64,000 nucleotides of DNA. Origin: a virus. Every line of letters starts with the position of its first letter. Position 1 is the first letter of the stretch. The position numbers were made by a program, and so were the translations under genes. Below are positions 9,416 through 41,726 of the stretch, in pieces. The stretch spans positions 1 to 64,000 of IMG/VR virus record IMGVR_UViG_3300050034_000403; one strand, written 5' to 3'. The notes beneath the pieces were generated by a model that worked only from the letters and a program-made list of their open reading frames with translations, was not told where the DNA came from and ran no database searches.

Positions 9416-9491
9416 AAAACGAAAATGGCCCAAGGCCATTTCTGGTCTTGAGCCATTGCTTGTTCCGCAAATGCGGGGGCATGTCGCTCAA
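9416..9491 (-). ncRNA. Conserved late-leader attenuator-like RNA, copy A
   Basis: UUGAGC-GA-CAUGC-CC-[CCGC AUUU GCGG]-AACAAGCAAUGGCUCAAGACCA-GAAA-UGGCCUUGGGCCAUUUUCGUUUU. Confidence 0.75.
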
Positions 9492-9602
9492 AAAATCTTT
9501 TGCTTACCGTCATCTAGCAAACATTTCTCTAAAAGCGGAAAGCATCTTTCATCAGGATTATATGCCACATCCAAAAAGCCACCTACGCAAAAACGCTTTG
9601 GC

Positions 9603-10934
9603 TCAGTGGACAATGCAGACGGGGTCAGGATCGGAGCCTGTCCGATAGAGATCACCCGCCACAAGTCCCCCCGTGATAGCCGCCGCGTTATCGGCGTAGA
9701 CGGACAGGTTGGCAATATTTGGAATGCCAGGGATGATCGTATTGCCCGATGCGTCAAGCAGTGTAAGGCTGTGTACGATTGTGGTGAAGTCATTCGACCC
9801 AGAGTATTGCCGGACATAGATTGGCTCATCGCCATTATCAGCCGTGGCGATCTCCAGATAACCGGCATCAGAGTCTGTGACGCCAACCGCGATTCTTACC
9901 TTGTCAGTGCCCGAGAGGATGTCGCCCTCGACCAGCGTGAGCATCGCGTCTGTTCCCGACAGGCTGTTCAGTGTCTCCTTGGCGATAGCCACAGTGCCCG
10001 CTGTGATCTCCGACTCGACAAACGCCGTTGTCGCGATCTGCGTCGTATCCGTGCCAGCCGTCGCTGTTGGCGCGGTAGGTGTTCCCGTAAGCGCTGGTGA
10101 CGCCAGTGGCGCCAAAAGCGCCAGCTCATCCGACAATCCAGAAATATCGGCAATTGCCGGCTGAGAAAGTTGCGGAACACCATCGGTACTGATCGAGTTG
10201 ATCCACTCATGGCTAACGGCCGCAATGGCCTCCACACCACCCAACGTCGTAAGGGTGGGTGCTGGGATCACAGCGTTTACCGTGACCGCACCCACTCCAC
10301 TGGTGGGTGAAACCGTCACATTGGTTCCAGCAATAATCTGCGTGACCACGCCACCAACAAGCGGAACCAGCTCCGCCCAAAAATCCGTGCCGTCGTAAGC
10401 CACCGTCGCCGCACTACCCTGAGCAACAGGCATGGATGCAGCGGCAAGATTTCCCTGGTACGAAATCGTTCCATCGATCGGTGTCAGTGTCGCTGTGCCA
10501 GCACCAAAATTAAGGAAGACGGCATACCAAGGCACCGTGATTGCAGGGGCAGACGATCCAACGCTCAGTGTAACGGCAATCGCCGAAGCATCATCGAGAA
10601 TAATGAACTTGCCATAATCCGATTGCAACGTGGTGTAGGCCGTCACTCCTGTTTGATCGTTTACGTAGCCAATCGTGGTTGTCGCAGAATTGGTAACAAC
10701 CGTCTGCGTCCCCGTGGACGTACTGCTTGACGTGCTTGTACTCGAACTTGAACTCGAACTCGAACTTGTTGTTGACGTCGTCGCGGCTGTCAACTGGGTT
10801 TTCAAAGACGCGACGGCCTGATTCAAGTCAAGGATTCCCTGGAAGGCGTTGCGGTGCGCAACCTTTGCGCCATCGCTTTCGTTGGCAATCTCCGTTTCAA
10901 ACGGATAGCGAAATGATTCAAGATTGATTGTCAT
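9603..10934 (-). CDS. Tail fibre protein
   Basis: Contains classic LAPLASPALTGTPTAPT..GT.TTQIATTAFV fibre motif; N-terminal coiled coil plus poly-Ser/Thr linker. Confidence 0.75.
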   Translation of the reverse strand: MTINLESFRYPFETEIANESDGAKVAHRNAFQGILDLNQAVASLKTQLTAATTSTTSSSSSSSSSTSTSSSTSTGTQTVVTNSATTTIGYVNDQTGVTAYTTLQSDYGKFIILDDASAIAVTLSVGSSAPAITVPWYAVFLNFGAGTATLTPIDGTISYQGNLAAASMPVAQGSAATVAYDGTDFWAELVPLVGGVVTQIIAGTNVTVSPTSGVGAVTVNAVIPAPTLTTLGGVEAIAAVSHEWINSISTDGVPQLSQPAIADISGLSDELALLAPLASPALTGTPTAPTATAGTDTTQIATTAFVESEITAGTVAIAKETLNSLSGTDAMLTLVEGDILSGTDKVRIAVGVTDSDAGYLEIATADNGDEPIYVRQYSGSNDFTTIVHSLTLLDASGNTIIPGIPNIANLSVYADNAAAITGGLVAGDLYRTGSDPDPVCIVH

Positions 10935-11048
10935 TTTTGCTTAGCCTTCCAGATCGTGCATTTTGGGCATAAACCGTTCGGAGGCGGAGCGACTTGTATC
11001 GCTCCGCAGCGCGTGCATCGCCGTGCTGTAATCGTGATTTTCCCCACT

Positions 11049-14000
11049 CTATCCGCCTCCTCCACTTTCGGCAAAGGGCTGCACTTCCTTGTATTCCCCT
11101 GTCGATCCCCAGTCCTTTGTCTGCACAACAAAGCCTTCCACGTTGAGTTCGAACGGAGCTGTGGAAGTAAATTGGAACCACAGCAGCTTCCACTTGCTCG
11201 GGCCGCAAACAAGTTTCATTTTTGTCAGATCCCCGCCCGACGAGGGAATCGTGATCGCCGGTGGCCCATAGCTGCCGTTGTCCACATCCACCGCATAGCC
11301 TGTCAGCGTAATGGCAGAAGAAGACGAATATTCAACAATCAGAATCGGCCCCAGAGTCTGCCATCCCTTTCCACCAATCGCCGATGTTTGCACAATGGCG
11401 GTTCCGGTTTCTGTGCCGCTGCTGGCTAATTGCCGAATAGTTCCATCGTTGCAACCCACCAGCACTCCCTGCTGGTTCAATCCTTCGTTTGCGGCGTGGA
11501 TCGTCGCCGGCCATTCGTACACATCCCACACCCACCCCTGCGCATTGATGTCATAAACGAGGGTGTGCGGGTCTCCGTCGGTTCCGACGTAGTCGTAGTA
11601 CATGTAGCCGTTCTGAATGCTAAACTTTTGCAACTGCGGCTTCGTATCGTCGGGCGGATAAATTGTCACGCCTTGTCGCGTCACCGGCTGCGGCATGTTG
11701 GTGCCGCCATCCTCATCCTCATGCGGAAACAGCGATTCTAAATCCTGATCCGTAATCGACTTGGATGCACCGCCACCAGGCGAAACGTGAATTCCGTCAT
11801 CCACGCGGAAGAAGATAAGCCCTCCGCCCTCGATCGCCACGCAGCGAGGCATAAACAGCCCACGGTTGATGCTTGTGGCCTGCAAGGTCCAGGTTGATCC
11901 GGTAGTCCCCGTCACGGTAGCCAGCGAGTTGAAGAAGTTGGGCATGATCACCCATGCCCGCCGAATCGAGAACAGCACACCCCGGCCACCAGACATTGCG
12001 CCATTGACCAGAGGTTCACTCGGGTCAGTCACATCCATCTGGTTGGTATCTGGCGCCGCATCAAGATTCGATCCCGAGCACCAATAAAGCGTTCCAGGCC
12101 GCAGTGTATCGCCAACGCCAAAAGTGTAGTTGATGTTGTCTGTTGGGCCGAATTGATATGGCAACGGCTGGTTGGCTAAAATTGGTTCTGAAATCTCGTA
12201 GGCCAGATCGGTTCCGTCAGGAACATCCGGAATCGTAATCTCGTTGACAAAACCGTCAGGAACGACAATTCCCTTGTCCGTAAATGTCACGGTTCCGCTA
12301 ACCGTCGTGCCGCCCGTAGTGCTGAAGGTCGGAGTTATGCTGCCAGAAATTCCCGCAACTGTAACAAGCTGGTAATGGCCATTGGTATCTTCAATCACCC
12401 AGTTCAACGCAAATGCGGTCAAAGATGCAAAAGAACCAGCTGTGGGCCGCGCAATAAACGTATAGGCCAAAGAAGTCGGAGAACCAATCCGGATGATCGT
12501 TCCTGACAGCCAGCGTGTGTTAAATCCAGTGGCCGTTCCTCCAATCGCGCCTCCGCTCACCCAGGTAATCACGCTACCCGAAACCGAGCAAATGCCCTTC
12601 TGCGGCAGATCAATCGAGGGGAAAGGCTCATAGTTGGTGTAAACAAGTACGTCAGTGCCAAGCTCCGTATCCGTCAGCGAATCTGAAACCGGGGTATTTG
12701 TTCCGTCGCCTCCAAGATCGTCATTTGGCCCTGTGCAAACATACGTAAAATCCGTGATGGAGGTATCGACGCGGTAGTAGTCGACCTTATCGACCTGTGG
12801 GTCGTTGGACCAAAGCGATGTGATGGTGTTCGCGGTAACGGGAACAGCTTCTGCCGTCGATTCGGGCGAAGGATTGGAAGTTGCTCCCGTAGCGCTGGAG
12901 CGATACACATAGCGATACTGCACACTTTCCCGGACCTTGGAACTCAAGGGAAGAACAATTGACGGCGTAGTCACGCCAGCCGCCGTTGTTGAGGCAGTTG
13001 GAGACACCATCAAGAGGAGAATGCGGCCAGAATGGTACCAAAAGTCATAGTCAATCTCGATCGTATGAATCGCGGCGGCCGAAAAGTGCAGAACCACAGT
13101 CGTAACCGTGCATTGGCCAGCCTCGTTGTAATAAGTTCCGTCGTATTTCAACGGAGCAACGGGAAGAAGCGCAATACCACTTACCACCGAGATCGTTTGG
13201 CCATAGGAAGAAATCTGCGAGTCAGTCAGCGTGACAGTTCCTGCCACTGTTTCTTCGTTGCCGGTCATGTAGGTTGCTGTAGCCGAAACAACGGTGGGAC
13301 TTCCGCTGATACCCCAAATCGTTTGATCTTTGTTGGTCAGAACAAACTTGTAATATCCCGCTGCCGGAATGTAGATACTTCCAGTCAGGCAGAAGTTGAA
13401 GTTTGTATACGTCGTGCTGGTTGTGTATGTAGACGTAATGGGAGAGGCAAACACGGGGGTTTCACCTTCGACAACGCCCTCTGGGGTCAGCTCGAACCAC
13501 TCCATCGGAACCGTAATATCGCTGATGCCGCTGGAAATATCCACGCCCGGCAATCCTGGGATACCGGCAGCAAGAGCCGGAACCGCCGCCGTTCCAAACG
13601 ACGCATCGAAGATAAAAGAGTTCCCTGTCGTGCTTCCGTCCGCAGTGGACGTCGTACGAGTTGGTCCACTGCCCGCAGAATCGTCTGGATTTTTCCAGAT
13701 ATATGATCCTGTTTGGCCGGATGTCGGAGAATCCCCCCAGTAATAAAGCGTCATCGTGCTAAGAATGGATGTAACTGTTGGCAGTGCATTTGTCGTCACT
13801 GTCACCGTGATGCTAAAAGAGCCAGAATTATCGCTGAACGTGTTCCCTGTCGAGTTGATGCCGATTTGAAAATCCACGGCTGTCGAAGGGACATCAATCG
13901 CTATCGTCAACGTCCCGCCCACGTCAATGATGTTCTGTCGATAGAGCGGTGCGGCTCCGGCAGCAATCACATTGCCGTCTCCATCCGTAAATGCTCCGAT

Positions 14001-14858
14001 AATCACCGATGGCGTCGTCGTGGGAGGAGAGACTCCACCAGCAGGCTGCACATAGTACCCGGGGTTGGTTGGGGCCAGCGTCGGCCCCGTCGCCGTTGGA
14101 GTCGTGACCACGCTTCCGTTGATGATCACCGTGTCCGTGGGGTCTGGAATGGTAATCGTTATGGTCGTAGCATTTTCAACGTTGATCGTATACGGCGCAG
14201 TTCCGTCGACAGGTGCGGTGGTATTTGGATATCCTTCTGTCTCTCCGTAATCGAAGTCTGCATTTGTTCCCGTTGGATAGTTTGTCCAAGGAATCGCCGT
14301 TGCGTAGAGCACACCGGTTGTCGTAACGCTAGAATTTTCTGTGGAAACGGACGGAGCAAGTTGCGGCTCCTTGATGCCCGTTTTGTAGCAGACACCATCC
14401 GAGCGAATCTTCATCAGCCCGTTAGATGGAAAATCAACAGCGGTATGGCCACCGAGGGTATTGGTAATCAGGTATTCCGTTTCAAGAGTGACGGCTCCCT
14501 GTATAGCTGAATCACCCACATACATCCATGGCTGCACAGAAGTGTTGGGCCGAAACGGAATCTCGGAAACTGGATTGCCAGTTAGCCCTGTCGCTACAAC
14601 CGTGCTTCCGGAGTACATATTGGTTCCAGCACCGTTGATGAGCGTATAACCGTCCGATGGGCCATTGGGCGTGGAGTCGTTCAAGCGGCGAATTGAATGA
14701 ATGGCATCGGAAAGCGTAAAAAGCGCCGTTGTCAGCAAATTTCGGAAGTTGATGCTGCCAACCGAGTAGGAACGGATATTTTGGGCAATCGTCACCCGGC
14801 CGCTAGGCACTCTATTGGCTGGGTGGGTTAAGTCGACTCCGTGGAATTCAAGCGGCAT
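11049..14858 (-). CDS. Tail tubular/nozzle-like protein with inserted putative lectin-like domains
   Basis: 1269 aa, beta-rich; C-terminal propeller-like part (LYWCS, IFFRVDDGIH, WVWDVY); PA14-like and LecA-like segments. Confidence 0.55.
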   Translation of the reverse strand: MPLEFHGVDLTHPANRVPSGRVTIAQNIRSYSVGSINFRNLLTTALFTLSDAIHSIRRLNDSTPNGPSDGYTLINGAGTNMYSGSTVVATGLTGNPVSEIPFRPNTSVQPWMYVGDSAIQGAVTLETEYLITNTLGGHTAVDFPSNGLMKIRSDGVCYKTGIKEPQLAPSVSTENSSVTTTGVLYATAIPWTNYPTGTNADFDYGETEGYPNTTAPVDGTAPYTINVENATTITITIPDPTDTVIINGSVVTTPTATGPTLAPTNPGYYVQPAGGVSPPTTTPSVIIGAFTDGDGNVIAAGAAPLYRQNIIDVGGTLTIAIDVPSTAVDFQIGINSTGNTFSDNSGSFSITVTVTTNALPTVTSILSTMTLYYWGDSPTSGQTGSYIWKNPDDSAGSGPTRTTSTADGSTTGNSFIFDASFGTAAVPALAAGIPGLPGVDISSGISDITVPMEWFELTPEGVVEGETPVFASPITSTYTTSTTYTNFNFCLTGSIYIPAAGYYKFVLTNKDQTIWGISGSPTVVSATATYMTGNEETVAGTVTLTDSQISSYGQTISVVSGIALLPVAPLKYDGTYYNEAGQCTVTTVVLHFSAAAIHTIEIDYDFWYHSGRILLLMVSPTASTTAAGVTTPSIVLPLSSKVRESVQYRYVYRSSATGATSNPSPESTAEAVPVTANTITSLWSNDPQVDKVDYYRVDTSITDFTYVCTGPNDDLGGDGTNTPVSDSLTDTELGTDVLVYTNYEPFPSIDLPQKGICSVSGSVITWVSGGAIGGTATGFNTRWLSGTIIRIGSPTSLAYTFIARPTAGSFASLTAFALNWVIEDTNGHYQLVTVAGISGSITPTFSTTGGTTVSGTVTFTDKGIVVPDGFVNEITIPDVPDGTDLAYEISEPILANQPLPYQFGPTDNINYTFGVGDTLRPGTLYWCSGSNLDAAPDTNQMDVTDPSEPLVNGAMSGGRGVLFSIRRAWVIMPNFFNSLATVTGTTGSTWTLQATSINRGLFMPRCVAIEGGGLIFFRVDDGIHVSPGGGASKSITDQDLESLFPHEDEDGGTNMPQPVTRQGVTIYPPDDTKPQLQKFSIQNGYMYYDYVGTDGDPHTLVYDINAQGWVWDVYEWPATIHAANEGLNQQGVLVGCNDGTIRQLASSGTETGTAIVQTSAIGGKGWQTLGPILIVEYSSSSAITLTGYAVDVDNGSYGPPAITIPSSGGDLTKMKLVCGPSKWKLLWFQFTSTAPFELNVEGFVVQTKDWGSTGEYKEVQPFAESGGGG

Positions 14859-15597
14859 GTACCCTCCCCCTAAAATCCATCACCTTAGTGCGCTTTCTGG
14901 AGTTACACGAGCGACACAGCGGTTGAATATTGTCGATGTTTGACGTTCCGCCTAAAGACACTGGAACGATATGGTCAACCGTCAGCTTTACGTCGCTTCT
15001 TCCACACCACAAGCAGCGATGCCCGTATGAATCAAGCAACGCGTTCCATTCTTCTGCCGTATAAGCCCCTCCAGCGTTTGACTTTTTGGTGCGACGGCGC
15101 TGCTCCTTGGCAAGATACTTCGCCGGATTGCGCCTATAAAATTCTCGGTTTTTCTGGCGAACCTCCTCTGGGTGCTGTGCGCAGTATCTTGCGCGCCATT
15201 CTCGTGCTCTTTTATTACCTTTCGCGCGATGACTTATCCGATACTCTCTGTCCTTTTCAGGATGATTTTTGTGGTACGCCCGTTCCCTGTCACAAATCGC
15301 GTCTCTATTCTGAATGTGGTAAGAACGGACATACTCCTGTACCTTGTCCAGATGTTTTTCGCGATAGGTGTGCGTATACTCTGCAAATTTGCTGCGATGG
15401 CTTTTGGCCCATTGCGCATTTTTTTCCAACACCTTTTCGCGGTTGCGCTGATAGAACCGGCGATAAGAAGAACGTCTTTGTTCTCGCCTTCTCTCCGTGT
15501 CCGGTCGGGCGTGCTCCCGGCACTTTGCGCTGCAATACTTTGGGGGCCGTCCACGAGCAGCCGCCTTAAATTCTTTTTTGCATTCTTGGCAAATCAT
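14848..15597 (-). CDS. HNH endonuclease
   Basis: C-terminal CLWCG...LTVDHIVPVSLGG...NIQPLCRSCNSRK; N-terminal CxxC...CSxxC; basic repeats. Confidence 0.9.
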   Translation of the reverse strand: MICQECKKEFKAAARGRPPKYCSAKCREHARPDTERRREQRRSSYRRFYQRNREKVLEKNAQWAKSHRSKFAEYTHTYREKHLDKVQEYVRSYHIQNRDAICDRERAYHKNHPEKDREYRISHRAKGNKRAREWRARYCAQHPEEVRQKNREFYRRNPAKYLAKEQRRRTKKSNAGGAYTAEEWNALLDSYGHRCLWCGRSDVKLTVDHIVPVSLGGTSNIDNIQPLCRSCNSRKRTKVMDFRGRVHAA

Positions 15598-15625
15598 GCC
15601 CCGACGTCGCTCCCAAAAAACGCAT

Positions 15626-15701
15626 AAAAACAGCAATGGCCCAAAACCATCGCTGGTCTTGAGCCATTGCTTGTTCCCGCGTAGCGGGAGGCATGTTGCT
15701 C
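15626..15701 (-). ncRNA. Conserved late-leader attenuator-like RNA, copy B
   Basis: 18-bp stem AGCAAUGGCUCAAGACCA/UGGUUUUGGGCCAUUGCU with GCGA loop then GUUUUU; upstream GAGC-AA-CAUGC plus inner hairpin. Confidence 0.8.
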
Positions 15702-15714
15702 GTGTTCTGAACGC

Positions 15715-15743
15715 ATAGTAGGCGATTTTGTCTTTAATGGCAA
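15715..15743 (-). promoter_or_regulatory. sigma70-like promoter feeding leader copy B
   Basis: TTGCCA-17-TACTAT. Confidence 0.6.
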
Positions 15744-15753
15744 TGCTAATCGC

Positions 15754-15782
15754 TTGACATATTTATGATCGGGTGATAACGT
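15754..15782 (+). promoter_or_regulatory. sigma70-like promoter of TumE-like TA pair
   Basis: TTGACA-17-TAACGT just upstream of ATG 15789. Confidence 0.55.
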
Positions 15783-15788
15783 ACAGGA

Positions 15789-17820: not shown

Positions 17821-17823
17821 TCA

Positions 17824-18105: not shown

Positions 18106-18123
18106 CTCTCACCTCTTCGACGC

Positions 18124-18204
18124 AAAAACAGCAATGGCCCAAAACCATCGCTGGTCTTGAGCCATTGCTTGTTCCCCCCCATGTAGGAGAAGGCATGTTG
18201 CTCA
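18124..18204 (-). ncRNA. Conserved late-leader attenuator-like RNA, copy C
   Basis: Same terminator stem as copy B; inner hairpin UUCUCCU-ACAU-GGGGGGG; promoter TTGTCA-18-CATAAT at 18247-18218. Confidence 0.8.
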
Positions 18205-18230
18205 GTGATTCTGCATCATTATGTTCGCAA

Positions 18231-18425
18231 TCATCTCTTGCTGACAACCCTTTTTTGGCGCCCGCGCTTCTTCGTCTTGCCTTTCTGCGGGCCGATTTTT
18301 CCTTCACGCCGCAAATAGCTTAAAAGGATCGCTTTCGCCTGACTCTTGTTCCGTACAATCTTGCCGCCTTTGCCAGAGTGCAGCTTGTGCTTGCGGAACA
18401 ATCCCATGATCTCGCTGGATGGCAT
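18231..18425 (-). CDS. Small basic protein
   Basis: M.LFRKHKLHSGKGGKIV.NK.QA.AI.LS motif common in phage late regions; K/R tail. Confidence 0.65.
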   Translation of the reverse strand: MPSSEIMGLFRKHKLHSGKGGKIVRNKSQAKAILLSYLRREGKIGPQKGKTKKRGRQKRVVSKR

Positions 18426-18442
18426 GAGTTTCCCCTTTCGCA

Positions 18443-18481
18443 GAGCCATTGCTGGTTCCCTTAAAGGGGGGCATGCCGCTC
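18443..18481 (-). ncRNA. Partial leader RNA copy D (5' domain only, no terminator)
   Basis: GAGC-GG-CAUGCCCCCCUUUAAGGGAACCAGCAAUGGCUC then diverges. Confidence 0.6.
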
Positions 18482-18495
18482 GGCATCAGAAATTG

Positions 18496-18580: not shown

Positions 18581-18584
18581 GCTA

Positions 18585-20466: not shown

Positions 20467-21477
20467 CTAGTAGGTTTCAAAAACTCCGTTGTCTTGCGAT
20501 GCATAGGTCGGGGTCCCGACTGAATAAACCGCTACGGCGTTACCCGTGTTCAAAGTTACATACAGACGATCGTTTGTGGGATAGTAGACTGCAAGGAATG
20601 GCTCACCGGCTCTCGACGTGGAGGACAGCACTGTATTCCTTAGTCCGTCAACAGTCGAGATCGTGAGCGCTGCTCCGTTTGCAGTATAAATAAGATTTGA
20701 TTGGCCATTGATCGCGCTTCCTATATTTCGCGGATTACCACTGGTTGCGACTGATATAGCTGTGACTATTGAATTCGTAAGCGTGTTGATGACAATCAAA
20801 TATCCTGCCAAAGTGGCAGAGACATACAGCCTGTCTGTCGTCGAGTTGAAAGACAACCCCTCTAAGTACGCATACGTTGTCGTTATCGTGGTCGACACGG
20901 CATTTGTAGAAGCATCAATTACATCCACATGTGAAGCGCTGCTTGAGGCTTGAGATACATAAACCACCCCAAGGCTTTCGTTAAATAAGACCTCATAAGG
21001 GTCAGCGAAAGTTGAAATCGTGGCAGAAAGGGTGTTTGTTGAAGTGTTGATTACACTTACCGATGACGAGCCATAATTTGCGACAAAAAGCTTTGCATCG
21101 CTCGCATCAAATGCCAAGCCAACAGGGTTAGTCCCTACCGTCACCGTTGTGGTGATAGTGTTGGTGGCACCATCCACCACGGACACCTTCGCACCAGTGT
21201 AGTTGGTGACATATAAGATGTTTGCGCTGGTATCTATAACGATGGAGCGCGGCCCGGAAAATCCGGTGATCGTCGCGGTCACAGCGTCAGTCGATATGTC
21301 TATCACCGAGACGGTAGTTCCTCCCTCGTTGGCAACATACATAAGCCCAGTCGTCGGATTGATCGCAATGCCCTGCGGGTCTGATCCGACAGCGATGGTC
21401 GTTATCAGTGTCAATGCAGCTTCCGAGCGGGATGCCAGCATCAAAGCGAGAATCATAAGCGCGAAGATTTTCTTCAT
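20467..21477 (-). CDS. Secreted YVTN/YncE beta-propeller protein
   Basis: MKKIFALMILALMLASRSEA signal; repeated YV(A/T)N..G..VSVID..TN.VT.TI. Confidence 0.85.
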   Translation of the reverse strand: MKKIFALMILALMLASRSEAALTLITTIAVGSDPQGIAINPTTGLMYVANEGGTTVSVIDISTDAVTATITGFSGPRSIVIDTSANILYVTNYTGAKVSVVDGATNTITTTVTVGTNPVGLAFDASDAKLFVANYGSSSVSVINTSTNTLSATISTFADPYEVLFNESLGVVYVSQASSSASHVDVIDASTNAVSTTITTTYAYLEGLSFNSTTDRLYVSATLAGYLIVINTLTNSIVTAISVATSGNPRNIGSAINGQSNLIYTANGAALTISTVDGLRNTVLSSTSRAGEPFLAVYYPTNDRLYVTLNTGNAVAVYSVGTPTYASQDNGVFETY

Positions 21478-21484
21478 AATTCTC

Positions 21485-32790: not shown

Positions 32791-32799
32791 TCCGTCCTC

Positions 32800-34032
32800 C
32801 TATGCCGTAAATCCAAACGCGTAATTGGAATGACGCGGCTGCACGTTGTACAGATTGATACCCAACCGCATGAACAAAGCGTCGATGCTGACGTTGTTCG
32901 GCATCGGGGCGCGACGAAGGCCAAAGTTCCAGCCCTTTTTGTTGGTCGGCCGAATCTTGAAGCTTTCCGGCTCCAAGAAGTACAAAACTTCCGAAGGCTG
33001 AATCGTGGTGAGCGAAGGCAGGCCGGAACCAGTCGGCGAGACAGTGACGGCCGCACCGTTCTTGGTGAACTGCGGAGTTGTGAACGCCACGGTCGTGGTG
33101 CTCGATCCAACGCCATCTGCCAAGTTCGTGTTGCCAGCCGCACCGTTTGCCGGAGCCAGCTCAATGAAGTTCTGAGCCTGCGCCGAAGGAGCCAGCGGGT
33201 CAGCGTAAATATCCACGCCGTTGAAGTTCAAACCATCCCACTTGATGTCGTGGCGAGTGTTCGAAATATCGCGGCGCTGCGCATCGAGCGCAACGGCAAT
33301 GGCCTTGAATCCGAAAACGTTGGTGATACCCAGCGTCGGATTGCCGCCCGTCACCTTGCACTGCGACCACAACTGCATCAAGGCAGCAAAATCAATCTGC
33401 CCCGTGCCACCTGTCGAGGTGCCCAGGTAAAGCGGCGTCGAGTTCAGCGCGGTTCCGATGTTTCCGTTGCGCGCCTGGCCACCGTAGTTCGCGTAGATGT
33501 TGCCATACACGGACGGATCGATGCCGTTATTCAGAGCTTCATCCAGACCATTGATGGTCTTGATGCGATTGTCCTGAATCGTCGCGGCAGAGGCTTGGCC
33601 GTGGCGGAACGAATCCATCTCCTGCATGGTGTTCATGGTCATCACCATGGCTTCCATGTAGAGCTGGTACTCGTCGACAATCTTCGACGGACCGGAGTTA
33701 ATCACACCACCGGTGCCGGAACCGTCATCCATCTCCCAGTCGTCCAGCGGATACCAAGTGGCATACGCCTTCGGCAGGAATTTGATGCCGGTGTTGATCT
33801 GCTGGCGAGTCACGGTAACAGTCTGGCCGGGATTCACCGCAGCGCCCTGAGTGCGCCCGTAGAGAATGCCTTCCATCATGCCCGCGCCGCCCAGGAATTC
33901 ATCCCACACACCGGCTCGGCGGAGCTTCGCCTGGAAAGGAGTGTCCACGAACAAGTTGTTGAATACTACATTCTTGCGGACACTTTCCAAGTTAGATGCG
34001 TCAATTTCGTTATACAATGGGTCCGTAGGCAT
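32800..34032 (-). CDS. Major capsid protein
   Basis: 410 aa between scaffold and cement genes; INGL..A, YGG..R, GLNFNGVDIYAD patterns of HK97-fold capsids. Confidence 0.7.
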   Translation of the reverse strand: MPTDPLYNEIDASNLESVRKNVVFNNLFVDTPFQAKLRRAGVWDEFLGGAGMMEGILYGRTQGAAVNPGQTVTVTRQQINTGIKFLPKAYATWYPLDDWEMDDGSGTGGVINSGPSKIVDEYQLYMEAMVMTMNTMQEMDSFRHGQASAATIQDNRIKTINGLDEALNNGIDPSVYGNIYANYGGQARNGNIGTALNSTPLYLGTSTGGTGQIDFAALMQLWSQCKVTGGNPTLGITNVFGFKAIAVALDAQRRDISNTRHDIKWDGLNFNGVDIYADPLAPSAQAQNFIELAPANGAAGNTNLADGVGSSTTTVAFTTPQFTKNGAAVTVSPTGSGLPSLTTIQPSEVLYFLEPESFKIRPTNKKGWNFGLRRAPMPNNVSIDALFMRLGINLYNVQPRHSNYAFGFTA

Positions 34033-34092
34033 ATCTGGTTTCCTTTCAGCGACTTACGCTGCATTCTCCGTTTCGAGAACTTTCGATTGCTC

Positions 34093-34164
34093 AAACAAAA
34101 ATGGCCCAAGCCATTTCTGGGCTTGAGCCATTGCTGATTCCCTCGAAAGGGGGGCATGCGTCTC
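34093..34164 (-). ncRNA. Conserved late-leader attenuator-like RNA, copy E (upstream of MCP)
   Basis: GAG-ACG-CAUGCC-[CCCU UUCG AGGG]-AAUCAGCAAUGGCUCAAGCCCA-GAAA-UGGCUUGGGCCAUUUUUGUUU. Confidence 0.75.
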
Positions 34165-34195
34165 GACTGATCTTCACGTCTTCAAACTGCAAAAA

Positions 34196-35221: not shown

Positions 35222-35242
35222 GTCACTTGTTCTCCCGAAGCG

Positions 35243-35560
35243 TTAGTATTGCGGTTGCTGACCCATCGGTGTTGGCTGTGGCGGACTTACCAAAGCCGTT
35301 TGCATCTCTTGAATTCCCTGCGATACCTTTTCCGCACCAGAGGCAAGACGCGGATCGGAGGCAGCCATTTGCTTGGCTGTCTGATACCAACGTGCGAGCA
35401 ACATCTGCATTGGATTGGCAGGAGCTTGCGAAGGAGCACCTTGCTGCGGGGCATTTTGGTCAGGTGCGCCTTGCGGCTGAGCGCCAGCTCCTTGATCGGG
35501 AGGCGGTGTACCTGCACCTTGTCCTTGGTCCTGCGGCATTGGTTGTGCACTTGTAGCCAT
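35243..35560 (-). CDS. Small Gln/Pro-rich protein
   Basis: AAGGAG SD, low complexity, between portal and scaffold. Confidence 0.55.
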   Translation of the reverse strand: MATSAQPMPQDQGQGAGTPPPDQGAGAQPQGAPDQNAPQQGAPSQAPANPMQMLLARWYQTAKQMAASDPRLASGAEKVSQGIQEMQTALVSPPQPTPMGQQPQY

Positions 35561-35623
35561 TACTGGAATCTCCTTGAGCGAGATTCCCCAACGGCAGCAT
35601 AGCTACCGTTGGGGAAAAGGTAA

Positions 35624-35731
35624 CTACGCCTTGATGGCGCTGCGCTTGCCGCGGCCCTTGCGACCACGACTCTTGCGGCCCTTCTTCAGATGGCTTGCCT
35701 TCATTGCACTAGCCTTGCGACGTTTTGCCAT
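35624..35731 (-). CDS. 35-aa protamine-like K/R-rich peptide
   Basis: AAGGAGG SD; MAKRRKASAMKASHLKKGRKSRGRKGRGKRSAIKA. Confidence 0.65.
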   Translation of the reverse strand: MAKRRKASAMKASHLKKGRKSRGRKGRGKRSAIKA

Positions 35732-35752
35732 GATGTTTTCCTCCTTGGTGTG

Positions 35753-35830
35753 AAATAGAAATGGCCCAAGGCCATTTCTGGTCTTGAGCCATTGCTGATT
35801 CCCCAAGGAGGGGGGGCATGCCGCTCAAAA
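35753..35830 (-). ncRNA. Conserved late-leader attenuator-like RNA, copy F
   Basis: Full consensus; promoter TTGACG-17-TATAGC at 35871-35843. Confidence 0.8.
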
Positions 35831-35880
35831 GATTCTGTTAGAGCTATAAGCCGAATTCTTTTTCGCGTCAAGTGTTATTT

Positions 35881-36120
35881 TTACAAAATCGTTTCGTCTA
35901 CATCCAGAATCTTACGAATCTCTTCCGCTTGTGCATCAGAAATCTTAGTGCGCTGTTCGAGATTTACTCCCTGCACAGAACCCTGGTTATACTGAACAAC
36001 CATCTTTCCGGTTGTTCTTGTAGCTTGGAGTAACTCGTCGGTCTGCTGAATATCGGCAGGTAATTCGACGCTTACTTCGGTCAAATAGTAGTCTTTTTGA
36101 ACCTTGATTTGGACTGCCAT
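35881..36120 (-). CDS. Hypothetical protein
   Basis: AAGGAG SD, 79 aa after portal. Confidence 0.6.
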   Translation of the reverse strand: MAVQIKVQKDYYLTEVSVELPADIQQTDELLQATRTTGKMVVQYNQGSVQGVNLEQRTKISDAQAEEIRKILDVDETIL

Positions 36121-36129
36121 GTCTTCTCC

Positions 36130-38214
36130 TTAGCTTTCGCTTACTACCGTGCGCGGTTCTCCACCTTGCGCGCCTTTTTGCTTGATCTTGGGCGGCTTTC
36201 CTCCGCTCGATGGCCGACCGCCACCAGCGCCCTTGCCACCGCCGCCGCCCTTACCACCGCCCTTACCACCGCCACCTTCTTCTGGTGGCTGAATTCCGAG
36301 CTGCTTCATAAACTGCTGTGCCGCAGCAGCCGCAAGAATCTTCAGCTTTTGCGATTCCAGCTCTTCGTTGAACCATTTTTCATGTTCGGTATTTCCCTGC
36401 ACCTCGCCATAGTTGGGGATATCGAGGTTCTTCATCACCGTCGACCAAGAAATCGGCGCACCACCACGCTTCAGTTGCAGCATCATCAATTGACGTTGCA
36501 TCTGCGTCACCTTCAACAGCGTGCTCGGCACCGATACCAACCGAATCTGCTTGGCAAACCAACGCGCACGCGTCAGCTGGTTGTAATGCGATGGATCTTC
36601 GGGAAAATTACCGCTGATCATCTCGTCGGGCATGTGGCTCGGAACCAGATCGTCTGGATTAAAGTCAAAAACCTCTCGTGCAATGCTGTCTGGTCCCACA
36701 TACTCCATGATTCGTCCGACGTTGAACCATTGCAGGATCAGGAATTTCATGCGGTAACCAACCGCCTTATTGCCTTTTTCAATGCGTGCGGCAATGCCCT
36801 TTGCAATTGGGCCAATGGACTCCAGCATCTTGTCGGCCGTGTCATTGGCAATGTTCATCTTCATGTTCTGAAGATTGCCAAGATCCGTCAGGCCCAACTG
36901 CGACTGCTTGCACTCCTTCAAATACTTCAAAAACGTGAAATGCTCCGAGCTAACACGAACTTCTTCAGGAAGAATCGACTGAAGGATGTCTCTCGGCTTG
37001 CCGTCTACGCCGTAGCGCACGTCTTGCTCAAAGATGTCAAAATGCTCAATCTTTGCGCCGCCTGTGGCGGTGTGGTCATAACCGATCGGCGGATTCAACG
37101 TAATCGTGATTACGTCGTCTATCTTGCGCTCGATCTTGCGCGTCGTTGTTTCAATCGATGCCACATCACCTACTAAAGAACGTCCCAGAGGCTCCCAAGC
37201 CCAATCATCCACGGTGTACTGAATCACTGGAATCTTTCCATCCCAGTCAAAGCTTGGTCCGTCGTACATGGGCCGATCGAGTCCAGTGGAAGTAATGATG
37301 AGTCGCAGGTTCGGATACACGCGGCAATCTTCTACCGTCGCCGGTCGCATGTACGCCAAGCCGTTGCGCATGCCGCCAAAAATCATTTGGCCAACATAGG
37401 GAACTTTGTAGAACCAACTGGTGCCAACATCTCCCATTGGCAATTCATAACCGGTATTGTTGATTCGGAGGTCGCGAATAAACGTGTAGCGAATTTCGCA
37501 ATAAAGATTGCCAAAACTCCGGTTTGGGCCACCATAGCGGAAGCGCTCGGCGTAATCCATCCGTCGCGCTTGAACCTGCGTTTTGTAACTACGCGGTCCA
37601 ACTGTCTGCAATTGTCCCTGGAAAAGCGGGAAACGACCGTGAGCTTCTGCGATCGGCATGTAGTCGTAGACCGTGACGGCGTAAGCATCCTGCACGTCGT
37701 TGCTTCGAGGAATCTGAACAGGAACTACATCCAGCAGGCCCAACGCATCGAACACCATCTTGCGTTCGCCATAGCCATATTCGTCCGCGCGCACCTTTGG
37801 CCACAGATAACCGATACCGGTAACGCTGGCATACTGCAAAACTTTCAAAATCTGGAAAGGAAAATCGGATTCCAGGTAGACGCACTTTGATACCTTGGTC
37901 AGCATCTCTGCCATTTGCTTATATGCAGGGATATCCGACCCATATCCGGCAATTTCGCGCACTTCGGAAAGAGTTTCGCAGAACTTGCGGATGTCGTATT
38001 TCAGTTCATTGGTGACAAGAATTGACCGCGACTTATCTCTGAAGATGGCATCGAAAATGCGCATATTCGTGCCCAGGTTCTTGTAGCATGTCTGCCCTTC
38101 AAGAAACCCTTCACCTTCTTCGATTTGTTCCTCGACCCATCCAGCACGCGAACTCGGCGAGGATTCAAACTTTGGGCATTGCCAGCAGGTAGTTTCTAGC
38201 TCCATTGCGGTCAA
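36130..38214 (-). CDS. Portal protein
   Basis: 694 aa downstream of terminase, G.GYL, W...LG.SL, NPPI patterns, G/K-rich tail; synteny. Confidence 0.7.
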   Translation of the reverse strand: MTAMELETTCWQCPKFESSPSSRAGWVEEQIEEGEGFLEGQTCYKNLGTNMRIFDAIFRDKSRSILVTNELKYDIRKFCETLSEVREIAGYGSDIPAYKQMAEMLTKVSKCVYLESDFPFQILKVLQYASVTGIGYLWPKVRADEYGYGERKMVFDALGLLDVVPVQIPRSNDVQDAYAVTVYDYMPIAEAHGRFPLFQGQLQTVGPRSYKTQVQARRMDYAERFRYGGPNRSFGNLYCEIRYTFIRDLRINNTGYELPMGDVGTSWFYKVPYVGQMIFGGMRNGLAYMRPATVEDCRVYPNLRLIITSTGLDRPMYDGPSFDWDGKIPVIQYTVDDWAWEPLGRSLVGDVASIETTTRKIERKIDDVITITLNPPIGYDHTATGGAKIEHFDIFEQDVRYGVDGKPRDILQSILPEEVRVSSEHFTFLKYLKECKQSQLGLTDLGNLQNMKMNIANDTADKMLESIGPIAKGIAARIEKGNKAVGYRMKFLILQWFNVGRIMEYVGPDSIAREVFDFNPDDLVPSHMPDEMISGNFPEDPSHYNQLTRARWFAKQIRLVSVPSTLLKVTQMQRQLMMLQLKRGGAPISWSTVMKNLDIPNYGEVQGNTEHEKWFNEELESQKLKILAAAAAQQFMKQLGIQPPEEGGGGKGGGKGGGGGKGAGGGRPSSGGKPPKIKQKGAQGGEPRTVVSES

Positions 38215-38783
38215 CCCTCGATTTCATTCAGTACGGCAAAATTTCCAAACAATTTCACCGCTGCCAGGTTGTACAACACAGCAGCTTCCTCGGGACTGCT
38301 ACAGATTCCGAGATGATTGTTCTTCCCGTTGTGCTCAATCTGTGCTGCGAATTTCTTTCCTTTTTTTACTACGCCCCTATATCCCGTACTGCTTTTGTAC
38401 TTGCGATTAGCTGCGTTTTGACTTGACGTTGCTACGCGCATTTCGGAACAGCGACAATCCAGTCCGTTCCCGTGGATGTGATCAACCTGAACGCCTTTGC
38501 TGACCCCCATAATTACGCGGTGCAACGAAACGTGTTTTCCATACTCCTCGCGCAATTCTTCCGTCGAAAGTGCTTCTGCATAAAACTTTTTCTTGCTTGG
38601 ATGTAAATGCCAAAGAAATTGTGCCGCCAATTCCTTTTTGTCTGCATCGATAAGCGCTTCATGCCCATCGCCAAAAGGAATATGAACGACACCGTCGTCG
38701 TCAGTTATCCATGTCGCAGCAAACTCGGCCCGCTTTTTGCGGAAGTATTCTTTGCGTCCGCGAATTGTTTCCGGTTGAATCAA
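38211..38783 (-). CDS. HNH-AP2 homing endonuclease
   Basis: LHRVIM...VDHI.GNGLD.R; TGYRGV...HLG....EEAA..YN.AA..LFG.FA.LN; own promoter TAGACG-17-TACTAT. Confidence 0.85.
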   Translation of the reverse strand: MIQPETIRGRKEYFRKKRAEFAATWITDDDGVVHIPFGDGHEALIDADKKELAAQFLWHLHPSKKKFYAEALSTEELREEYGKHVSLHRVIMGVSKGVQVDHIHGNGLDCRCSEMRVATSSQNAANRKYKSSTGYRGVVKKGKKFAAQIEHNGKNNHLGICSSPEEAAVLYNLAAVKLFGNFAVLNEIEG

Positions 38784-38872
38784 GCCTTCACCTGATAACT
38801 TCTATTGCGCATAGTAGGCAAAATTTGCCTACACGTCTACGCTAATTTCACATAGCGTAAGTTATGCGTAAC

Positions 38873-39262
38873 CTATCGTCCTTTCTCATACGCTTCTGCA
38901 TGCAGATAGCTTTCGCGCCGCATTTTTGTCTTGTCCGGTCGATTGCCATACGATTCCAAATGTTGGCGCAAGAAGTCACGGTTCAGGTTATTCCGTGCGT
39001 TTGCCATCTGGTGGCGCATGTAGCTGCGCAAGTTGGCGCGGATGGGTCCTTCAATCATTTCTCGCTGCTCGTCTTCCATCTGGTACTTGTAGGCTTCCCA
39101 CTTACGCATCCGTTCCGACCACACTTCGGCTTCATGCATGGTGTTGCAGACAATCTTTTCGAAACCCGCTGGTGCCGGGAACTGTTCAGGAAGGCCCATA
39201 CGGATTTCGCCGCGAGTTCCATCGTGCCAAAACACGATTTTGGTTGCTAACTGTGCGTTCAA
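38873..39262 (-). CDS. Hypothetical protein
   Basis: TTG start with GGAGG SD overlapping terminase stop. Confidence 0.55.
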   Translation of the reverse strand: MNAQLATKIVFWHDGTRGEIRMGLPEQFPAPAGFEKIVCNTMHEAEVWSERMRKWEAYKYQMEDEQREMIEGPIRANLRSYMRHQMANARNNLNRDFLRQHLESYGNRPDKTKMRRESYLHAEAYEKGR

Positions 39263-41409
39263 TCGAGACCTCCCACAGAAACCATGTTCGAAGAACATAC
39301 GGCTTTGCTCAACGGAGGTGCTTTCTCCGTTGGCAATGCATAGCGCTTTTGCGATCTATCCGCAAGAATGTCGAAATCGTGCGCAGTAAAGAAAGATTGC
39401 GCCGCAGCACGCACGCGATCATCATGCTGACCGCTGCGATGCTCCAACTTGGAAACTCTGCCAGCCGCTGCATGCCGCTCCAGCGTTTTCAACTCTTCAA
39501 TTAACCATCTGGATGTCGGGCGATACCAGCCACCATTCACAGCTTCCGTAAAGCGCGTCATCAGGATTGGCACACTCCATACGTTGGAATACCAGCCCTG
39601 TTTTTTGCCAGAATCATCCTTGATCTTTTTGCTGTCGTAGCGACGTGGAACGTGATGCCAATGGAAGCCCATCAGCTTCAACTGGTGCTGGCATGTATCA
39701 CCTGGTCTTCCGATCTGCTCCACGCAAAACTTCACGCCACGTGGATCTTTTGCATTTTCGCCATACCAGGCGGCAATGCAAGCTGCAAATCCGACAACTT
39801 GTGCAGAGTTGATGCGGTTCGATACCAGCTCAGCCACCTGATAGTCATATTCATCGCCAAAACGGTTGCGCGTTACCGATACGCAGGTTCTGTCTTCATC
39901 CTCTTTGCCAAGACCATCTGCCGTGTCGATGCCGCAACTGTAGGTGTATCCAGGGTTGGGCTCTTCATATACCAGCAGCTTGTCAAAGGTTTCCAGCTCC
40001 ACATCTTCGTCAATCGGAAGGAGAGGAACCAAAACCCAGTCATAGCGTTGTCCGCGATCCGATTTCCATGTCACGCGGATATGCGCTTTGTCGTAATCAA
40101 TCAATGGCTCTGGTGGCTCAAAACCATCGTCGATGGAATCACCAGTAATGGCGTAGGCTTGCACCTGCTTCTTTCTTTCCTTGGTGTCGCCTTGCACTTC
40201 ATAAATGTTGTCTTCGATCTCCTGAATCGTTTCCACATCGAACACGCTGTCATGCACACCTGTCAGCGCTTCATAGTCGTCAGCCGGCATCTGCGCAAGC
40301 CAAATCTTCTGACTGTGATTTTTGCAAGATTTGGCGTAATTGAATTCCCAAAACCACTGCTGCTCCAGCGGCATCCGCCAATCTTTTCCAACAATCCGTG
40401 ACAAAAACGGCGTATTGCGAATGTAGGACTCGGCACGGATCACATGCTTGCGCGTTGCTTCCATGCGCTTCTTGTAAAAGTCTTCTGGAACCGGGAACTG
40501 ACGAATCCATGCCTTTTCAGGGTAAAGATCCGTCGCCATTGCCCAAGGAATAAATACAGGGCAAAGATCATGCAATCCTTTGGGGAAGTCTTCTTTCGCA
40601 GCGCGCCACGTCTCGGCCAACCAGCCGGTGTTTCCACCACCTGTGCCTTCAAACACCATGAAGAGGTTGGGAGTGGCGTGCGTGGCGCGCAACAGGCCTT
40701 CTTCAATCACCTTCTTAGGCTTGGGGATATCCGCCAACTCCGAAACGTGAATTAATGTGGGAGTCCAACCTTGCGCGATACCCGTTGCCTGCATACCAGA
40801 TTGAATGGACAACACAGATCCGTTATCGAATGAGCCTTTGGGTCCACGGCGCGGCACCAGCCACCAGGGGCATTGGTTGTAGGCAATATCCAGGATGCGA
40901 CCGATCAGCTCGGACTTATCCGACTGCACCGAGGCCATCACAGCCTGAGTGTGCGGAATGAACAACATCCTTTGAAGAAACTTCAGAGCGGTTTTTGTGG
41001 TGATGCCCACCTGCCGCGCTTTCAAAATCAAAAGGCGAATAGCAACTTGCTTTTCGTCGAAATCGGCGATTACGGAATCGAAAACTTCTTGCGATTTCCG
41101 GTTTTTGAATTTGAAAATCTCGCCGCCTTCGTTGCAGACGTAGGCGTAGCAATCGTCAAAGTAGTTGCTATCGAGGGCACACATCACCTGCTCGTTCTCT
41201 ACCCACCGCCAAATTTCCTTTTGGCGCTTTTGCGTGATGGGACGCACAAGGGAGATATACGAGGACTTCGAGTTTGATTCGATTTTTACGATGGAATCGA
41301 TGTAGTGCTTGAATTCTTCCACCTGGGCAAACGTATGAGGGGTAGGCATCCACCCCTCACGCGCGGCGAACTTGTCCAGGTTCTGTACGATAATCTTTTC
41401 GGAATACAT
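39259..41409 (-). CDS. terL: Terminase large subunit
   Basis: ILKARQVGITT Walker A, IHVSE Walker B, FEGTG, GIDTADG and HDDRV RNase H-type nuclease motifs. Confidence 0.9.
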   Translation of the reverse strand: MYSEKIIVQNLDKFAAREGWMPTPHTFAQVEEFKHYIDSIVKIESNSKSSYISLVRPITQKRQKEIWRWVENEQVMCALDSNYFDDCYAYVCNEGGEIFKFKNRKSQEVFDSVIADFDEKQVAIRLLILKARQVGITTKTALKFLQRMLFIPHTQAVMASVQSDKSELIGRILDIAYNQCPWWLVPRRGPKGSFDNGSVLSIQSGMQATGIAQGWTPTLIHVSELADIPKPKKVIEEGLLRATHATPNLFMVFEGTGGGNTGWLAETWRAAKEDFPKGLHDLCPVFIPWAMATDLYPEKAWIRQFPVPEDFYKKRMEATRKHVIRAESYIRNTPFLSRIVGKDWRMPLEQQWFWEFNYAKSCKNHSQKIWLAQMPADDYEALTGVHDSVFDVETIQEIEDNIYEVQGDTKERKKQVQAYAITGDSIDDGFEPPEPLIDYDKAHIRVTWKSDRGQRYDWVLVPLLPIDEDVELETFDKLLVYEEPNPGYTYSCGIDTADGLGKEDEDRTCVSVTRNRFGDEYDYQVAELVSNRINSAQVVGFAACIAAWYGENAKDPRGVKFCVEQIGRPGDTCQHQLKLMGFHWHHVPRRYDSKKIKDDSGKKQGWYSNVWSVPILMTRFTEAVNGGWYRPTSRWLIEELKTLERHAAAGRVSKLEHRSGQHDDRVRAAAQSFFTAHDFDILADRSQKRYALPTEKAPPLSKAVCSSNMVSVGGLD

Positions 41410-41422
41410 CAGCCCTCATGAG

Positions 41423-41533
41423 CTAGCCCTTGACGGCGATCGTCTTGCTGGCTCTCTTACCGAGCTTCTTGACACGCGGCGTCATTTTCTTCGTTTCGCA
41501 CAGCTTGCTTGAAACGCGCTTTGTTTTTGCCAT
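41423..41533 (-). CDS. 36-aa basic peptide (not in ORF track)
   Basis: AAGGAGG SD; MAKTKRVSSKLCETKKMTPRVKKLGKRASKTIAVKG. Confidence 0.6.
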   Translation of the reverse strand: MAKTKRVSSKLCETKKMTPRVKKLGKRASKTIAVKG

Positions 41534-41599
41534 GACGTTCCTCCTTGGAACTTACGATCCCGCCAACTTGGTTGTTGCGGGAGGGTTGCAATAGGCCGG

Positions 41600-41675
41600 A
41601 AAACAGAAATGGCCCAAGGCCATCTCTGGTCCTGAGCCATTGCTTGTTCCCGCTTGAGCGAGGGGCATGTGTCTC
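41600..41675 (-). ncRNA. Conserved late-leader attenuator-like RNA, copy G (head of terminase module)
   Basis: GAGA tetraloop variant, inner hairpin CUCGC-UCAA-GCGGG; TTGACG at 41717-41712 upstream. Confidence 0.75.
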
Positions 41676-41726
41676 GGTAATTGCTTTACATTTATACCGA
41701 ATTACATCTTGCGTCAAGCGTAACTT

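Follow-up and report, generated by a model that had tools for sequence, protein, structure and literature searches.

A family of two-state leader RNAs repeated along the late genes of a temperate peat phage: a candidate cis-acting attenuator

We analysed a structured leader RNA that recurs along the late genes of the phage represented by IMG/VR record IMGVR_UViG_3300050034_000403. The record is 89 kb long, and the stretch under analysis, referred to here as the window, comprises its positions 1 to 64,000. We found that the leader occurs at seven places in the window, each time in the sense orientation, and that it can form two helices that are both evolutionarily maintained and cannot coexist, one of which resembles an intrinsic terminator. 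The explanation that we favour, and hold to be probable though well short of certain, is that the leader is a cis-acting RNA switch, i.e. a transcription attenuator, repeated along the late region of the phage.

Six full copies and one variant lie on the minus strand, where an initial annotation of the window had placed them. The G of the GAG that opens the element falls at 9489, 15701, 18203, 34164, 35826 and 41675 in the full copies and at 18481 in the variant. The minus strand also carries the genes of the leader region, so all copies are sense-oriented. A search with the pattern CATGCC..GGAA..AGCAATGGCTC returned seven matches, compared with none in 100 shuffles, and the remaining 25 kb of the record contain no further copy. 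When the seven minus-strand stretches were aligned, they bore out the consensus of the initial annotation: GAG-N3-CAUGCC, a variable hairpin, GGAA-NN-AGCAAUGGCUCA(A/G)G, a short stem with a GNRA loop, UUGGGCCAUU, and a U-rich tail. The two ends of the 5' domain pair as a helix that we call P1 (GAG with CUC, CAU with AUG, GC with GC, and a bulged A), which carries the variable hairpin, P2, as its cap. The 3' strand of P1 (GC-A-AUG-G-CUC) doubles as the 5' arm of the terminator-like hairpin. The loop of the latter had been described as varying only within GNRA, which is the case in five copies (GAAA, GCGA, GCGA, GAAA and GAGA); c4 has lost one base and closes a 7-nucleotide (nt) loop. The copies, with lengths given in base pairs (bp) and amino acids (aa) and with the open reading frames (ORFs) or genes behind them, are as follows.

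9416-9489, minus strand: copy c1, with the P1 5' strand at 9478-9489, P2 at 9461-9477, the P1 3' strand at 9450-9460 and the hairpin (GAAA loop) at 9424-9457, then a U-rich tail
9404, minus strand: start codon of the 193-aa ORF downstream of c1
15626-15701, minus strand: copy c2, with the P1 5' strand at 15690-15701, P2 at 15672-15689 and the P1 3' strand at 15661-15671
15632-15671, minus strand: hairpin of c2, 18 bp with a GCGA loop, then GUUUUU; an HNH endonuclease gene is next
18124-18203, minus strand: copy c3, with the P1 5' strand at 18192-18203, P2 at 18170-18191 and the P1 3' strand at 18159-18169
18130-18169, minus strand: hairpin of c3, 18 bp with a GCGA loop, then GUUUUU; a 93-aa ORF (start 18105) is next
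18418-18481, minus strand: variant copy, with the P1 5' strand at 18470-18481, P2 at 18454-18469 and the P1 3' strand at 18443-18453
34093-34164, minus strand: copy c4, with the P1 5' strand at 34153-34164, P2 at 34136-34152, the P1 3' strand at 34125-34135 and the hairpin (13 bp, 7-nt loop) at 34100-34132
34032, minus strand: start of the major capsid protein gene downstream of c4
35753-35826, minus strand: copy c5, with the P1 5' strand at 35815-35826, P2 (CCCCUCCUUGGGG) at 35797-35814 and the P1 3' strand at 35786-35796
35760-35793, minus strand: hairpin of c5 (GAAA loop) with a U-rich tail; a 35-aa basic ORF (start 35731) is next
41600-41675, minus strand: copy c6, with the P1 5' strand at 41664-41675, P2 at 41645-41663 and the P1 3' strand, which is the terminator 5' arm, at 41634-41644
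41608-41641, minus strand: hairpin of c6 (GAGA loop) with a U-rich tail to ~41600; a 36-aa basic ORF (start 41533) and then TerL (start 41409) are next

The variant copy keeps its 5' domain intact and has neither a terminator nor a U tract; only a weak AUGGC/GCCAU pairing reaches 18418, and the copy ends directly ahead of a 58-aa basic ORF (start 18407). The relative designated L018 retains the variant copy, with a compensating change.

Related leaders are found in other phages. A pattern scan of IMG/VR yielded 50 loci, in which a covariance model built from the six full window copies recognised 79 sense copies, 64 of them distinct. Relatives fetched through their capsid protein (down to 65% identity) and searched with this and a second model added ~20 diverged copies, bringing the non-identical copies to ~100 overall. 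Two complete relatives (132.7 and 134 kb) encode 7-8 sense copies each, on one strand and within 33-37 kb, while a third (122 kb) encodes two. The same kind of scan across 185,579 species genomes gave 42 matches where ~27 would be expected by chance (by our own arithmetic). Only the contigs L067, L090 and L091 passed the covariance model, and true copies in metagenome-assembled genomes are confined to three contigs (two from Acidobacteriota, one from Methylacidiphilales); the remaining matches are at chance level, fail the model and were rejected. The leader, whose sequence the initial annotation did not recognise, matches no Rfam family: in a scan of the whole window only a tRNA reached the gathering threshold, which the riboswitches, Acido-1 and Acido-Lenti-1 among the Rfam families did not, and permissive filters on the c4-c5 region gave best matches with E of 0.37 or worse, far under threshold. 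Megablast of 20 kb against a phage collection returned no match, and hence no close relative there, and literature searches by literal sequence and by keyword returned no description of this leader element.

The evidence that carries our interpretation is covariation, which we scored on an alignment of 66 non-redundant copies. On this alignment, 85.5% of the cells of the terminator helix are paired and 15 of its pairs have changed on both sides, values reached in 0 of 500 shuffles; sliding the partner strand by 1-3 columns drops the pairing to 36-53%. The diverged set behaves alike, with 82.6% paired and two-sided changes at 18 pairs. P1 and P2 together are 87.4% paired, with eight pairs changed on both sides (0 of 500 shuffles; slid controls 25-44%). 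At the key pairs of P1, A-U has become G-C five times and U-A once, U-A has become C-G twice, and G-C has become A-U twice. Among the diverged copies, whose alignment was fitted to the terminator rather than to P1 and so does not lean towards P1, one key pair is AU in 11, GC in 7 and UA in 1, and another is GC in 8, AU in 7 and GU in 6. Even the otherwise invariant outer GAG/CUC helix is replaced by UAG/CUA in two diverged copies, L145 (2849-2927) and L149 (3373-3456). The 5' end of these two copies, and of L167 (2701-2796), is three bases shorter, and no outer helix is evident in L167.

The nucleotides shared by the two folds covary with both of their partners. In P1 the U of AAUGG is paired to the A of CAUGCC, and in the terminator its partner is the A of GCCAUU; this triple is A-U-A in 54 copies, G-C-G in four and G-C-U in one, and it is U-A-U in L147 provided that one accounts for a gap in the alignment at its third position. 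Because P1 and the terminator each covary, and the shared column does so with both partners, we conclude that both helices are maintained, and the two exclusive folds proposed in the initial annotation are real. This shared-strand covariation is also our main argument against every rival explanation considered below.

Several observations indicate that selection acts on the RNA of this strand and not on a DNA palindrome. A U.G wobble alternates with U-A (UG in 49 copies and UA in 16 at the column pair 60-89), the pairs that close the GNRA caps covary (CCA/UGG to CCG/CGG), and the inner hairpin P2, as had been noticed before, changes in sequence and length while its pairing stays (CCCC/GGGG, CCGC/GCGG, CGCC/GGCG, CUCGCC/GGCGAG and others). 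The leader is therefore a strand-specific RNA structure. The core inverted repeat is conserved in sequence, as would be expected of a DNA-level site for a dimeric phage protein, such as a repressor or a packaging protein. To that reading we give next to no credence, as every copy is co-oriented with the genes, the conserved G.U wobbles would be A.C mismatches on the other strand, the changes follow RNA rules, and P2 pairing outlasts variation in its sequence and length. A leader peptide was considered and rejected as well: the AUGs of CAUGCC and AAUGGC are lost in diverged copies (CUUGCC, CGCGCC and CAGACU; GAGG and GCGG), and they change as base pairs do, not as start codons.

With 13-18 bp, a high G+C content and a U-rich stretch on the coding strand, the second hairpin looks like an intrinsic terminator, and among the terminator-like sites in the 4-44 kb region, those of c2, c3 and c4 rank as the three longest. 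When each is folded alone, the 5' domain has a predicted energy of -8 to -16 kcal/mol and the terminator one of -21 to -30 kcal/mol. The terminator is thus the more stable by 10-15 kcal/mol, so the default state should be "stop" unless P1-P2 is stabilised. Taken together, a U-tailed, G+C-rich hairpin, a selected alternative helix on one of its arms and a leader position before an ORF are among the hallmarks of the attenuator class.

Such an architecture could also work factor-free. The leaders might be constitutive, tuned partial terminators in which P1 lowers the efficiency to a fixed level, providing for the dosage and insulation of gene blocks with no signal in trans. That no effector was found (see below) would fit this idea, as would the copies inside operons, e.g. 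before the capsid gene, where phage dosage control is common. We nevertheless think it quite unlikely. The stability gap favours the terminator by the margin given above; the sequence of P1 and its internal loops, and not just the pairing, is kept across paralogous copies, which suggests specific recognition; and dosage control needs neither one sequence at seven places nor the complementarity to start regions described below. Alternatively, imperfect hairpins of 15-18 bp located between gene blocks, inside operons and before the highly expressed capsid gene could be RNA processing or stability elements, either RNase III-type sites or protective ends that define stable late-block mRNAs, as in T7. 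Processing would require neither the conserved U tract, nor the GNRA caps, nor the competing P1, and we rate this reading as highly improbable.

We then considered how the leaders relate to promoters. Promoter-like sites lie just upstream of four copies.

15715-15743, minus strand: TTGCCA-17-TACTAT before c2, found by a scanner
18218-18247, minus strand: TTGTCA-18-CATAAT before c3, found by a scanner
35843-35871, minus strand: TTGACG-17-TATAGC before c5, found by eye and recurring in relatives
41689-41717, minus strand: TTGACG-17-TAAATG before c6, found by eye, with a layout that recurs in orthologous copies

The three sigma70-like promoters named in the initial annotation are among these, but a clear promoter accompanies only four of the seven copies: c1 has a weak promoter-like site at best, and none was found at c4 or the variant copy. 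Copy c4 begins ~30 nt past the upstream gene's stop codon; its orthologues do the same, are also promoter-less and lie before the capsid gene. Family-wide, 29 of 66 copies have a near-perfect CTTGAC(A/G), a 17-nt spacer and a weak TAnnnn that ends 13-16 nt before GAG, which means that P1 would lie inside the transcript; about a third of copies have no promoter. Because only four of the seven window copies have a clear promoter and about a third of those family-wide have none, the leader element is not promoter-dependent and stands as an independent RNA module. Between the upstream gene and the c5 promoter no separate terminator was found, so the leaders would also stop transcripts arriving from upstream. 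The layout of the leader promoters is itself unusual, in that the -10 element (TAnnnn) does not end in the usual T and often follows ATTCGG. It may point to dependence on an activator or a particular sigma factor.

The combination of promoter, short RNA and terminator is also the anatomy of a small RNA gene. The promoter-bearing copies could accordingly be genes for ~85-nt trans-acting small RNAs with a C-rich seed, which would either repress ribosome-binding sites or act as sponges for an RNA-binding protein of the host, their location ahead of late genes being secondary. The C-rich 5' part does complement Shine-Dalgarno regions, and the succession of an A-rich stretch and a U-tailed hairpin is reminiscent of Hfq-binding RNAs. 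Against this, about a third of the copies are promoter-less, nearly all abut a start region in cis, the best complementarity is to a copy's own downstream gene, and covariation of P1 has no role once the terminator hairpin of a small RNA has formed. We consider such a function very unlikely.

The position of the leaders relative to start codons suggests a second layer of control. Nearly every copy directly precedes a Shine-Dalgarno sequence and start codon, with the start lying a median of 12 nt beyond the modelled element, and almost every copy ends ~25 nt before the ribosome-binding site. In c1, the 5' strand CGACAUGCCC exactly complements GGGCAUGUCG, which spans the start codon at 9404, while in c5 the P2 sequence given above is complementary to the downstream Shine-Dalgarno sequence CCAAGGAGG. 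The same Shine-Dalgarno sequence is matched by CCUCCUUGG in c5-type copies, and in L127 and L130, whose 5' strand now reads CAGACU, ACAGACUCC is complementary to GGAGUCUGU. Across 37 representatives, the 5' domain pairs with its own start region at -18.4 kcal/mol and with foreign ones at -16.2 kcal/mol, a difference that none of 5000 permutations equalled. In the energy model, the start region has an unpaired probability of 0.54 when P1-P2 is forced and of 0.40 when the terminator is forced (42 copies versus 5). Because the leader lies right next to the ribosome-binding site and has a 5' domain complementary to the start region, these models suggest that the switch probably acts on translation too.

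Our favoured explanation, the cis-acting attenuator, would work as follows. During transcription the 5' domain would form first, as P1 capped by P2. Left unaided, the more stable GNRA-capped hairpin would displace P1, and RNA polymerase would stop at the U-rich tract, whether it had started at the leader's own sigma-70-like promoter or arrived from an upstream block. A trans-acting factor that holds P1-P2 together would let polymerase run into the gene block. Should the terminator form in read-through RNA, the freed C-rich 5' domain could pair with the Shine-Dalgarno and start-codon region within the following ~25 nt, so that translation would be masked too. We regard an early-made, sequence-specific RNA-binding protein as a more likely factor than a small molecule, because the sequence of P1 is kept across paralogues, the internal and P2 loops vary in length, and the targets are virion genes.

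A number of points weigh against this explanation. P1 is short and interrupted, and the U tracts are interrupted as well (e.g. UUUCUAUUUC). The independent lineages with double changes are few (~6-8) and all belong to one phage clade. A terminator right before the capsid gene, the most highly expressed virion gene, would be odd unless its relief is very efficient. The -10 elements of the promoters are atypical, with no T at the last position. The translational effect rests on energy models, and the copies compared are related, not independent. Peat metatranscriptome contigs cover the late genes, but assembled contigs carry no information on RNA ends, and the one adapter-flanked RNA piece across the c5 terminator (275 nt, 35818 to 35544) shows only that a spanning RNA exists. 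Finally, no candidate effector of a known family was found among the ~65 phage proteins scanned.

The last point deserves to be set out in full. The initial annotation had pictured late genes held off by terminators and released by a ligand- or protein-stabilised antiterminator, in the manner of RAT, ANTAR or nut systems. The RNA structure, the terminator-like hairpin and the exclusive folds hold up, but no CAT, ANTAR, Q or N type protein came to light: a search of ~65 phage proteins against Pfam and PHROGs detected none of the known antiterminator and RNA-binding families (CAT, ANTAR, Q, N and Nus types), and specifically no CAT_RBD or ANTAR-domain match, some small ORFs and the host genome lying outside the scan. 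The genes beside the leaders offer other candidates. Of 65 ORFs behind a copy, 29 are no longer than 75 aa, 28 of these being very basic, and a family of basic ORFs of 33-40 aa follows the c5 copy in all relatives, down to 65% capsid identity. In the window, three such ORFs have strong ribosome-binding sites, and a longer gene precedes the first leader.

35627-35731, minus strand: 35-aa arginine/lysine-rich ORF behind c5 (MAKRRKASAMK...SAIKA)
41426-41533, minus strand: 36-aa basic ORF behind c6, just before TerL (...LGKRASKTIAVKG)
18234-18407, minus strand: 58-aa basic ORF behind the variant copy
41727-42326, minus strand: conserved gene of ~200 aa (longest ORF 280 aa), directly upstream of the first leader and TerL

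The tiny basic ORFs have no Pfam match, and could encode packaged DNA-binding proteins or RNA-binding peptides. The gene at 41727-42326 keeps its position in five relatives and has 243 homologues, none of them named. Its AlphaFold model is all-alpha (mean pLDDT 75); we found no Pfam match, no PDB sequence match and no Foldseek match at E of 0.001 or better, and VIA-align gave only weak helix-turn-helix-like rows with Z of 4 or less. Possible identities are a small terminase and a late regulator.

The leaders can also be read in terms of processive antitermination of the lambda N/nut or Q type, in which the 5' box and the GNRA hairpin would be a loading site for a phage factor that renders RNA polymerase resistant to terminators, the adjacent terminator would block only unmodified polymerase, and P1 would be a recognition structure and no competitor of the terminator. 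Most copies lie just downstream of a conserved promoter architecture, and the tip of the hairpin, a short stem with a GNRA loop, is boxB-like. The 35-aa ORF directly follows the most conserved copy, and in lambda, N follows nutL; likewise, a conserved gene of no recognised fold sits just upstream of the first leader, like Q before PR'. A polymerase modified upstream would, moreover, pass the promoter-less copies. We still find this reading unlikely. The P1 3' strand is the terminator 5' arm and covaries with both partners, which is predicted by competition between helices and unneeded for a loading site; no Q, N or Nus-type family was found; and although one loading site per promoter would be enough, promoter-less copies retain the full 5' domain.

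The 7-9 leaders of each phage could be parts of a single RNA-based late regulon, in which one dedicated factor binds P1-P2 of all of them and unlocks both the transcription and the translation of every virion block simultaneously. We put this forward tentatively, as a possibility that we doubt more than we believe. The most interesting candidate for the factor is the arginine/lysine-rich mini-protein of 35 aa encoded behind the most conserved copy.

The genomic setting is that of a phage whose DNA is found in peat and permafrost metagenomes. It encodes an integrase, RecT, a Rha/ANT antirepressor and a primase-helicase, and is therefore temperate. The initial annotation had assigned the leaders to terminase, scaffold, capsid, adaptor, tail and ejection modules. 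The terminase (TerL) and the major capsid protein were confirmed, and are the only late genes to which family names can be assigned besides two HNH endonuclease genes; the scaffold, adaptor, tail and ejection labels are mostly unverifiable, and one copy, c2, precedes an HNH endonuclease gene instead. The features of this setting are as follows.

39259-41409, minus strand: TerL gene (family match)
32800-34032, minus strand: major capsid protein gene (family match)
14848-15597, minus strand: HNH endonuclease gene with its own leader, c2 (start 15597)
38211-38783, minus strand: second HNH endonuclease gene, within the late region
43564-43655, minus strand: tRNA-Tyr (GTA anticodon, 92 nt; called by ARAGORN only), in the non-structural region
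47242-47317, minus strand: tRNA-Met (CAT), in the non-structural region
45847-46011 and 63017-63193: tandem arrays of a hairpin-containing repeat, GTTGCATC....GATGCAC, with periods of 47 and 70 nt

Copies c2 and c3 have identical hairpins, which looks as though the leader had been duplicated together with the HNH endonuclease or to serve it. In the relative G005, an insert splits the TerL match into two pieces. No complementarity was found between the leaders and the tandem arrays, and a trans-acting RNA from the arrays or elsewhere in the genome was rejected, given that the 11-13-mers shared with the leaders occur at chance level only. Accessory genes are listed at 4-1484 (plus strand), 46300-46827 (minus), 50715-51662 (plus), 57620-57991 (plus) and 20467-21567 (minus). 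The accessory set includes a radical SAM protein with a weak family-2 glycosyltransferase match (slightly under the Pfam cut-off) next to it, a GNAT acetyltransferase, a DUF932 protein and a PIN-domain protein. A beta-propeller (lactonase/NHL-like) protein sits among the virion genes.

Comparison with known systems singles out two of them. By mechanism, the closest is RAT/BglG-type antitermination. As with BglG, SacY and LicT, a weak, imperfect leader hairpin with a bulge and internal loops has a 3' part in common with the 5' arm of a stronger terminator, termination would be the default, and relief is expected from binding of the weak hairpin. Unlike those systems, the phage has no CAT-domain protein among those scanned, carries 7-9 copies per genome on virion genes rather than sugar operons, and has a leader that also abuts and complements the ribosome-binding site. 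No sequence likeness between this leader and RAT is apparent. By layout, the closest is the lambdoid PR'-6S-tR'-Q arrangement, in which late genes likewise lie behind a constitutive-looking promoter and a promoter-proximal terminator, with a short leader RNA as an expected by-product and a conserved gene just upstream of the first leader. Lambda, however, has a single unit of this kind, as against seven or more in this phage. Q works through DNA and a paused polymerase and requires no competing RNA helix, whereas here the competing helix covaries with the terminator, and no Q family match was found.

Other systems share fewer features. Lambda N/nut (boxA-boxB) also has several copies of an RNA element downstream of promoters, a small GNRA-type hairpin and a small basic ORF behind one copy. 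Nut sites do not overlap the terminators that they suppress, however, no boxA-like match was found here, and the basic ORFs of 35-36 aa are alike by resemblance only. The TRAP-controlled trp leader of B. subtilis similarly uses one leader and alternative pairings for both termination and access to the ribosome-binding site; termination is promoted by bound TRAP, whereas we expect a bound factor to prevent it here, and the RNA is unrelated and present in many copies in a phage. ON-type transcriptional riboswitches resemble the leader in that P1 closes a small structured domain and shares its 3' strand with the terminator. They differ in that the leader has no Rfam match and precedes virion genes, not metabolic ones, and the variable length and sequence of its P2 loop and internal loop argue against a tight small-molecule pocket. 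ANTAR leaders have tandem dual hexaloop hairpins, in place of which we see one long, interrupted helix with a variable cap. Altogether, the type of mechanism is known, and what is new is the leader family and its use in many copies on the late genes of a phage.

To our knowledge, late-gene switching has been worked out for a few model phages only, and nearly always proceeds through proteins that act on DNA or RNA polymerase. Here, one and the same small RNA switch appears to gate every virion module across a whole clade of large temperate phages of peat Acidobacteria. This would be a compact, portable, multi-copy RNA control device, and a new structured RNA family with a defined, testable two-state fold. 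It would also help in the search for a new RNA-binding regulator or ligand, and the late transcription units of uncultured phages could be predicted from it. If the 35-aa mini-protein were the factor, the system would include positive feedback; if the factor were a metabolite instead, the leaders would be a phage riboswitch class. Should the late regulon exist, it would take on the role played in known phages by Q, late sigma factors or DNA-binding activators.

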